From a virus: a stretch of 64,000 bases of DNA. The notes under the pieces were generated by a model. The model saw only the letters and a list, made by a program, of their open reading frames with translations, searched no databases and had not been told where the DNA came from. Below are positions 36,373 through 37,403 of this stretch, in pieces. Each line of letters begins with the position of its first letter. The first letter of the stretch is position 1. The DNA lies in UHGV virus genome UHGV-0291501; one strand, written 5' to 3'. The translations under genes were made by a program, and so were the position numbers.

Positions 36373-36960
36373 ATGAAACTGTTAAATATCAAAATCACTG
36401 GTACTCGTCCTTTCCTGAGCCATAACGATACGTTGTCAGACCCATTAAACCCTCTGACAAAATATCACAAGTCTCTGTCCAGTAAACGTAAAAAGACTGA
36501 CGAAGACTATGCGCTCTTAGCAGAAAGTCAACTGGTAACTTCTTGTTACTACGATGAGCAACTTGGTTTTGTTATGAACGGTGAGATGATTGAGGCTTGT
36601 ATCAAGTCTGGTGCAAAGCTCAACAAACTTGGTAAGGTAATTGACCGAGCCATTATGCTGACAGATGTAGTCTTCCCAATGACTATTAAGAACTGTCCAG
36701 CAAACCCACAAGAACTTGCTAAGAATCCAGACTTCATCTATGCTAAGTCTGTTAAGATTGGTACAGCACGAGTTATGAGCTACCGTCCAATCTTCCGTGA
36801 CTGGTCTGTAGAGTTCGGTTTGATGTTCGATGAAGAGCAAATCACCAAAGAGGAACTTCTGATGGTTCTTGAAAATGCTGGCAACCTTTGTGGTGTAGGT
36901 GATTGGCGTCCACGCTTTGGTCGTTTTTCTGTAGAAGTTATTTCAGAAGGTAACGTTTAA
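36373..36960 (+). CDS. Hypothetical protein (cassette gene 1)
   Basis: Start at ATG 36373 (MKLLNIK) with gtggag RBS; track start at 36358 is GTG; no recognisable motif. Confidence 0.5.
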
Positions 36961-36962
36961 TT

Positions 36963-37403
36963 ATGAATACAAAAGCATTAGCAGCAAAGTTTAGTTACGG
37001 TGACACTGTATCACATTCTGAGATGGACACCTTCTTAGGTATTGTGAAGCCAACTTATCAAGGTGACATTGTTAAGTACGAAGATGAAATGAAGGCTTAT
37101 GCGCTTACACGTCTAAACCGACTTGAGAAGTTTATTGAGAAGCTTCTTAAAGAAGAGAAGATTTATCTGGTTGCTTCAATGGGTGTTGGTTATCGTGTGG
37201 TTGAACCTAAGCATCAAGCAACTATTGCAAAACGTAAAATGTCTGGTAAAATTGGTCGTGCTTTAAAGCAAGCTACTCAAGCAATTGAGAATGTGAACAC
37301 TATGGCACTTAGCCACCAAGAACGTTCACGACTAATTGAACAGCAAAACCATTTAGCTGCTATGAAAGCTAACATTAACAAGCAACGTAGAAAACCTTTC
37401 TAA
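36963..37403 (+). CDS. Hypothetical protein (cassette gene 2), helical, basic C-terminus
   Basis: 146 aa; tightly coupled to the upstream gene; followed by a terminator. Confidence 0.5.
   Translation: MNTKALAAKFSYGDTVSHSEMDTFLGIVKPTYQGDIVKYEDEMKAYALTRLNRLEKFIEKLLKEEKIYLVASMGVGYRVVEPKHQATIAKRKMSGKIGRALKQATQAIENVNTMALSHQERSRLIEQQNHLAAMKANINKQRRKPF

Follow-up and report, generated by a model that had tools for sequence, protein, structure and literature searches.

What might two adjacent phage genes be doing when neither product carries a readily recognised motif, and when the pair is framed on each side by copies of the same repeat? The question is raised by a stretch of 64,000 nucleotides of viral DNA (UHGV virus genome UHGV-0291501, referred to here as the window), in which an initial annotation had described a cassette of two translationally coupled genes and had proposed that the surrounding repeats marked either a unit exchanged by homologous recombination or genes under special regulatory control. 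The window is the DNA of a Felix O1-like phage (Felixounavirus, a myovirus), and over the 2.1 kb around the cassette it shares 99% identity with Escherichia virus TH10 and about 90-96% with over 100 genomes of Felixounavirus. The neighbours of the locus are genes for ligase, small ORFs, DHFR and thymidylate synthase, and only two genes lie inside it. The descriptive part of the annotation stands: both ORFs are present, the gap of 2 nt between the stop codon of the first and the ATG of the second fits translational coupling, and the repeats prove to be a single composite unit in four copies, with a pair on each side of the genes (Table 1).

Earlier records offer little guidance to the function of this region. 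The two genes are hypothetical in public genome records and are named in none of the records for phages KhF3, wV8 and tootiki. The earlier labels of the repeats include 'direct repeat sequence4 possible binding site of StbAB' in KhF3 (L001 3217-3227) and 'DR_4' or an unnamed repeat_region for those in wV8 (L012 1759-1816, 3152-3209) and tootiki (L002). Neither protein had a match in Pfam or PADLOC, each falls into one PHROGs family of unknown function, and an Rfam search of the region returned no matches. The genes are called vipr and vap1 below, and the repeat-encoded RNAs vrRNAs (vr1 to vr4), in keeping with the identification that is reached in the following paragraphs.

Table 1. Features of the locus, candidate guide targets and corresponding arrays in other phages (positions are those of the window unless a locus number precedes them; NN, the two variable bases of each repeat unit)
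Feature	Position	Strand	Description
Sigma-70-like promoter	35931..35958	+	TTGACA, 16 nt, TATACT; 11 of 12 consensus positions matched in the scan; directly 3' of the ligase stop codon, upstream of vrRNA1
Composite repeat units 1-4	35995-36153, 36157-36296, 37436-37564, 37568-37687		Each a leader, a G/T-rich tract and a hairpin-containing tail
Conserved leader, ~28 nt	36157-36184, 37436-37463, 37568-37595; variant 35995-36020		TTAAAAGGTCTTTAAGAGGGTCTTTTAA; before each array
vrRNA1	36021..36153	+	19 GGYNN units (36021-36115), type-A pseudoknot tail (36116-36153); identical to ASO1B vrRNA1
vrRNA2	36188..36296	+	15 GGYNN units (36188-36262), type-B pseudoknot tail (36263-36296)
vipr (gene 1)	36373..36960	+	ATG 36373, stop TAA 36960; 195 aa; GGAG 9 nt upstream of ATG
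vap1 (gene 2)	36963..37403	+	ATG 36963, 2 nt past vipr stop; 146 aa
Terminator-like hairpin	37415..37430	+	AGCCTCTTCGGAGGCT, then a T run; 3' of vap1
vrRNA3	37467..37564	+	12 GGYNN units (37467-37526), type-A pseudoknot tail (37527-37564); identical to wV8 vrRNA3
vrRNA4	37599..37687	+	11 GGYNN units (37599-37653), type-B' pseudoknot tail (37654-37687)
Site in vipr matched by Felix O1 orphan vrRNA (L004 1698-1757)	36838..36872	+	21/24 NN bases; unbroken run of 10 perfect units; the base skipped is at the wobble position of the codon
Site in vipr matched by DE7 orphan vrRNA (L028 1499-1563)	36731..36768	+	9 consecutive perfect NN units
Candidate target of vr1			Satellite tape-measure gene; units 10-18 perfect (9); full-length NN match 0.68; skipped base is the wobble position (hand calculation)
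Candidate target of vr2			Satellite intergenic site; units 6-13 perfect (8); full-length NN match 0.73
Candidate target of vr4			Satellite 'phage baseplate protein' gene; units 1-8 perfect (8); full-length NN match 0.82 (18/22)
LittleE arrays	L006 3675-3869, 5156-5446		GGCAA-type; 2 upstream, 3 downstream
MakoManhole arrays	L007 1689-1753, 2889-3063		GGCNN; 1 upstream, 2 downstream
Medea1 array	L005 5064-5133		1, downstream
phiHSIC arrays	L008 4650-4893		xGCAA; 3 between the two genes

The repeats themselves provide the first part of an answer, in that the G/T-rich tract of each composite unit is an array of pentamers. The 5-nt register runs unbroken, with no phase slip, through all 19, 15, 12 and 11 units of the four arrays, and a lenient detector, which finds a mean of 0.68 and a maximum of 3 pentamer arrays with 9 or more units in shuffled windows, reports no others in the window on either strand. 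When 417 pentamers from 32 unique arrays of 10 phage loci are pooled, a simple unit code emerges: the first position is G in 76% of the units, the second is G in 99% and the third is T or C in 100%, and the fourth and fifth positions have entropies of 1.93 and 1.89 bits. The arrays are strictly strand-asymmetric. Between vrRNA2 and its counterpart in phage tootiki the NN dinucleotides are identical throughout, and two Y positions are the sole differences. An internal duplication of 30 nt, or six units, lies at 36022-36078 within vrRNA1.

The tails that follow the arrays fall into types that can be compared with one another. Type A and type B align without gaps and fold into one H-type pseudoknot, in which alignment columns 3-6 pair with 17-20 and columns 9-15 with 28-34; 92% of the cells pair, and 9 of the 11 pairs have changed on both sides. 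The covariation score of this structure was reached by none of 500 shuffles, and slid controls pair at only 29-40%. On the other side of the arrays, all three occurrences of a 17-nt motif of the leader, AAGGTCTTTAAGAGGGT, within the 64 kb of the window fall at this locus; the number expected by chance is 0.24. The leader could be the promoter of each vrRNA or a processing signal. The promoter-like sequence that precedes the whole locus is conserved in Felix O1 and in every related locus that was read. The -10 element of this promoter-like sequence shares bases with an inverted repeat, GGTGAGTA...TACTCACC (35947-35954 with 35980-35987), which is kept alike in loci with the two genes and in loci that have repeat units only, and which may serve as an operator or fold into a structure at the 5' end of the RNA.

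A second part of the answer comes from the proteins, for which the absence of any recognisable motif noted at the outset no longer holds in the case of gene 1. Its product is a minimal Cas7-like RAMP of 195 aa, as judged from the result of the fold search together with the consensus of its family, which contains the motif IPGxN(I/L) and a C-terminal G-loop, both of them typical of RAMP proteins. The family comprises 520 relatives of ~190 aa (E<=0.001) from phages and prophages of very different bacteria. The product of gene 2 has a long helical hairpin in its C-terminal part and, probably, a winged-helix-like domain in its N-terminal part; its fold search is dominated by generic helical hairpins and does not settle the function of the protein, and the DNA-binding fold is weakly supported. 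Searches with the single Vap1 sequence recovered near-identical copies only, and its distant partners came to light through a profile of partner genes, which yielded 29 proteins, mostly encoded next to homologues of gene 1.

These features coincide with those of a system that has already been described in two preprints of 2026 (10.64898/2026.04.26.720920, 10.64898/2026.04.26.720927), the Viral Interference Programmable Repeat or VIPR, of which the locus of the window is a member. VIPR comprises the RAMP protein Vipr, an accessory protein Vap and vrRNAs made of 9-16 YNNGG repeats and a structured tail (bioRxiv 10.64898/2026.04.26.720920), and in its cryo-EM structures one Vipr protomer is found per repeat unit (bioRxiv 10.64898/2026.04.26.720927). 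For the model system, that of Escherichia phage SUSP1, both preprints together report vrRNA expression, co-purification of Vipr and formation of an RNP, binding of dsDNA, repression, and enhancement by Vap1 (10.64898/2026.04.26.720920, 10.64898/2026.04.26.720927). The Vipr of the window differs from the experimentally studied protein of SUSP1 at 4 of 195 residues and is identical to it at all nine published contact residues (H17, K33, E71, M72, R138, C173, D177, W178, R179), and the two Vap1 proteins differ at 1 of 146 residues.

The features by which type II VIPR is defined are found here as a minimal single-RRM RAMP of ~20 kDa with a G-loop and a thumb; an adjacent vap1 gene with a predicted DNA-binding product, 2 nt beyond vipr; flanking intergenic vrRNA genes, for which at least 4 tandem YNNGG/GGYNN repeats are required, with conserved GGY and hypervariable NN; and a conserved pseudoknot at the 3' end of each of these. 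The 19 units of vrRNA1 exceed the published range of 9-16. We conclude that a type II VIPR system, complete and belonging to the SUSP1 clade, very probably occupies positions 35931-37687, and that a defined system whose guide sequences can be read takes the place of two "hypothetical proteins" and their enigmatic repeats. The repeats thus encode the guide RNAs of the very system to which the cassette contributes the proteins, and the view of them as passive flanks for recombination or regulation has to be given up. The observations contributed by the present analysis are the folds of both proteins and their near-identity to those of SUSP1, the repeat code, the pseudoknot, a skip rule at the level of the clade, and partial matches of three guides to a satellite phage.

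By its near-identity to the SUSP1 system, the VIPR locus of this phage might be expected to function in the same manner. The four repeat units would be transcribed into vrRNAs of roughly 100 nt, along which Vipr, with one protomer per GGYNN unit, would sequester GGY and present the NN dinucleotides, the resulting filament being capped by the 3' pseudoknot. Such a filament would bind dsDNA by reading NN-x-NN-x..., with one base skipped per unit (every third base of the target), whereby a gapped R-loop would form and transcription would be blocked, and Vap1 would strengthen the repression. The clade would find its natural targets in a satellite phage that is inserted into the chromosomes of E. 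coli, and the system might then be regarded as a weapon between mobile elements.

The VIPR of the window and that of SUSP1 share the genomic site after the ligase gene, the GGYNN design of the vrRNAs, the tail pseudoknot and, tentatively, the family of satellite-phage targets, but the arrays are arranged as one upstream and three downstream in SUSP1 as compared with two and two in the window, all four NN guide strings are unlike, and the one phage is a Suspvirus and the other a Felixounavirus. Larger differences separate VIPR from class 1 CRISPR-Cas, whose Cas7 backbones (Csm3, Cmr4, Csf2) have a period of 6 nt with 5 informative bases, in contrast to 5 nt and 2 for VIPR; Vipr, moreover, is phage-encoded and consists of a single RRM within 195 aa, and VIPR represses its targets and does not cleave them (preprints 10.64898/2026.04.26.720920, 10.64898/2026.04.26.720927). 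A class 1 CRISPR-Cas locus was itself set aside as a candidate, since the locus lacks a CRISPR array, any alternation of repeats with spacers, and further cas genes, and its repeats are 5-nt units. It has been proposed that VIPR is older than the RAMPs of CRISPR systems, and it represents a new, non-contiguous RNA code for the recognition of DNA.

A gene pair bracketed by arrays of direct repeats might also be a replicon or partition module, with an initiator or a centromere-binding protein acting amid iterons, as in the case of P1 repA with incC and incA. The resemblance of Vap1 to a DNA-binding protein would suit such a module, as would the GenBank label of KhF3, in which a repeat at this site is given as a possible StbAB binding site. 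Iterons of ~17-22 bp or centromere repeats of 7-12 bp would be expected, however, instead of units of 5 nt, and a period of 5 nt in which GGY alone is conserved is too short for dsDNA-binding domains to sit side by side; the strict strand asymmetry of the arrays is a further objection. Gene 1 encodes a RAMP, which is neither an initiator nor an ATPase, no Pfam match to Rep or ParA was obtained for either protein, and the lack of the genes in about half of the otherwise similar phages would be an ill fit with an essential origin. As the repeats have in addition been shown to be RNA guides (10.64898/2026.04.26.720920, 10.64898/2026.04.26.720927), we regard a replicon or partition function as extremely unlikely.

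The guide-RNA reading gains from the occurrence of the same module (vipr, vap and arrays of 5-nt units) in unrelated phages, namely Mycobacterium phage LittleE, Gordonia phage MakoManhole, Pseudomonas phage Medea1 and Listonella phage phiHSIC. The small partner genes beside the gene 1 homologues of these four phages have the motifs YG(D/E)xV, GxGYRxxxPxE and NV..L..ER in common with Vap1; the partner lies directly downstream of the gene 1 homologue in Medea1, LittleE and MakoManhole, and the arrays intervene in phiHSIC. That 5-nt arrays accompany vipr homologues in unrelated phages, despite a changed repeat unit, indicates that the repeats and the RAMP gene constitute one system. These distant vipr-vap modules are insertions within clusters of structural genes, often on the opposite strand. 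The annotated ORF21 of phiHSIC, which extends over array sequence, is probably not a genuine gene.

The same observations bear on the idea that the arrays act structurally and independently of the genes, whether as an R-loop origin, as G-quadruplexes or as a site around which a TRAP-like ring is wrapped. TRAP binds triplets with a spacing of 2-3 nt, a strong promoter-like site is followed here by a G/T-rich non-template strand, the GG-N3-GG spacing could in principle give two-tier quadruplexes, and the arrays persist in phages without the genes. Against this, many of the units begin with TGT or AGT, so that GG tracts are not the feature that is conserved, and the arrays keep company with vipr homologues in unrelated phages even where the repeat has become GGCAA (LittleE) or xGCAA (phiHSIC). 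With one Vipr protomer per unit in the cryo-EM preprint (10.64898/2026.04.26.720927) as well, a purely structural role is so improbable as to be nearly negligible. The RAMP fold and the co-occurrence of arrays and vipr in unrelated phages were the grounds on which an iteron replicon, a TRAP-like wrap, an R-loop origin, G-quadruplexes and clusters of primase sites were all dropped.

If the arrays are guides, as we conclude, their NN strings should be legible as targets. The guides of the SUSP1 clade are directed mostly against an E. coli satellite phage (preprints 10.64898/2026.04.26.720920, 10.64898/2026.04.26.720927), and the report that the baseplate hub protein of this satellite is 72% identical to that of SUSP1 (10.64898/2026.04.26.720920) gave a clue to its location. 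The chromosomal element so located (L015-L025) is the satellite that is targeted by the VIPR clade, and it is present in 474 of 5,426 complete E. coli genomes (about 9%); 11 of the 474 copies were sampled, and the first 7 were used for the clade-level test of the rule. The element is roughly 11-15 kb in size, has a tape-measure gene, a serine recombinase and an HNH endonuclease in most of the copies examined, and is integrated at a DUF72-family gene between yecN and yecD, at yciI/tonB or at ymdF/wrbA. No convincing vrRNA arrays belonging to the satellite itself were found in the first seven loci, where the output of the lenient detector was noise. Within the window, the first ~540-560 nt of a 266-aa gene beside the tape-measure gene (50564-51364, minus strand) have up to 90-95% DNA identity with the satellite 'phage baseplate protein' gene.

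When 35 vrRNAs of the clade were compared with the seven satellite loci, many of them reached an NN match of 0.80-0.94 with a skip of 1 nt, as opposed to ~0.6-0.75 for nearly all of them with skips of 0, 2 or 3, and the published 1-nt-skip (xNN) rule is thereby reproduced at the level of the clade. For the guides of the window the correspondence is partial. The perfect runs of vr1, vr2 and vr4 in Table 1 exceed those obtained with 100 shuffles of the unit order (maximum 7) and with other skip rules (maximum 7), and for vr3, with a full-length NN match of 0.71, no significant target emerged from the 11 satellite loci. The threshold of at least 80% NN used in the preprint is passed by vr4 alone, for which a 2-nt skip also gives 0.82 by chance in a guide this short; its mismatches lie at the 3' end, beside the pseudoknot, and the base that it skips is, by hand calculation, the second of the codon and not the wobble base. 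In view of these weak points in the only guide that passes, the target assignments for the window are tentative. Since the match of vr1 is confined to the 3' half of the guide, its 5' half may be non-functional or may constitute a second guide. Exact full-length xNN scans of IMG/VR found no targets of vr3 or vr4. The candidate targets that can be offered are thus sites in a satellite carried by about 9% of the complete E. coli genomes.

The initial annotation had also suggested a comparison of related phages for the presence, absence or replacement of the cassette between the conserved ligase and DHFR genes, and this comparison did uncover variation. Both genes are present at an amino-acid identity of at least 95% in 118 Ounavirinae phage records; in about 106 of 253 records the ligase gene is followed by one or two vrRNA units and then by the downstream gene, without vipr or vap; and about 30 records, such as those of Sf13 and Michonne, have no repeat unit at the site. 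The outcome is a map of about 250 genomes in which each locus carries the full system, orphan guides only, or neither. One record named for a Staphylococcus phage (SA1, GU169904.1) contains the Felixounavirus cassette at 91679-92263 with 99.5% amino-acid identity, which suggests that the record is chimeric or contaminated.

Some of this variation has the marks of recombination. The single unit of Felix O1 joins the left end (leader) of unit 1 of the window to the right end (tail) of unit 4, which is the product expected from recombination between units, and guides are held in common between phages in a mosaic pattern (vr1 with ASO1B, vr3 with wV8, the NN string of vr2 with tootiki), which indicates that recombinational exchange is real. 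It could be argued from these junctions inside repeat units, from the mosaic sharing of vrRNA units, and from the greater conservation of the cassette (95-99% DNA identity across phages, as compared with mostly 90-95% for the 2.1-kb stretch that includes the flanking repeats) that the locus is a mobile or recombining unit and nothing else, its repeats being homology arms for gain and loss that have no function of their own. Passive arms, however, would not be expected to conserve GGY to the extent described above while NN is free to vary, or to undergo compensatory base changes in their tails, and many NN strings of the clade match satellite genes under one skip rule only. We therefore consider it very unlikely that mobility is the sole function of the repeats. 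What survives of the original proposal is the exchange itself, on the evidence of presence and absence, of the unit 1/unit 4 junction and of the mosaic guides; what does not is the notion of mere flanks, the repeats being functional guide genes between which recombination probably occurs as a secondary consequence.

The guide-bearing but vipr-less loci raise a further question, as to what use a guide might be to a phage that does not encode the protein. The one-base-skip rule was applied to all 64 kb of the window with 69 different arrays, taken from loci of Felixounaviruses and from contigs in IMG/VR, and long perfect runs were obtained with no more than two of them. These are the orphan vrRNAs of Felix O1 and DE7, both of them vipr-less phages, and both matches lie inside vipr (Table 1). 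With other skip rules the two orphans gave runs of at most 6 units, and 300 shuffles gave at most 7. The orphan guides of JN01 and OPT-SAL01 had no significant match in the window or in the satellites, and guides from VIPR-carrying loci had none in the window's own genome, in agreement with the lack of self-targeting reported in the preprint (10.64898/2026.04.26.720920). According to the main text of that preprint, some Pseudomonas vrRNAs target other VIPR systems; the same main text makes no mention of orphan guides or of Felix O1 (10.64898/2026.04.26.720920). The clade was defined in the preprint by similarity of the Vipr protein, and vipr-less phages would for that reason be missed.

We see about an even chance that the orphan guides are RNA-only counter-weapons, which would be loaded onto the Vipr of a co-infecting rival and would silence the vipr-vap operon of that rival. 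If this were so, they would represent an anti-VIPR analogue of the RNA anti-CRISPRs. The latter, known as Racrs, are solitary repeat units of phages that mimic CRISPR repeats and poison host Cas complexes. Like Racrs, orphan vrRNAs are guide-like RNAs without a cognate effector that presumably exploit the protein of a rival; they differ from Racrs in that they look like fully programmed guides, two of which are directed against vipr. Relatives that lack vipr may thus fight back by means of guides aimed at the gene itself, a prospect that bears on the competition between phages in mixed infections and that could matter for the composition of Felix O1-like phage cocktails. The sites in vipr that are matched by the two orphans are conserved in all eight of the other VIPR-carrying loci that were checked.
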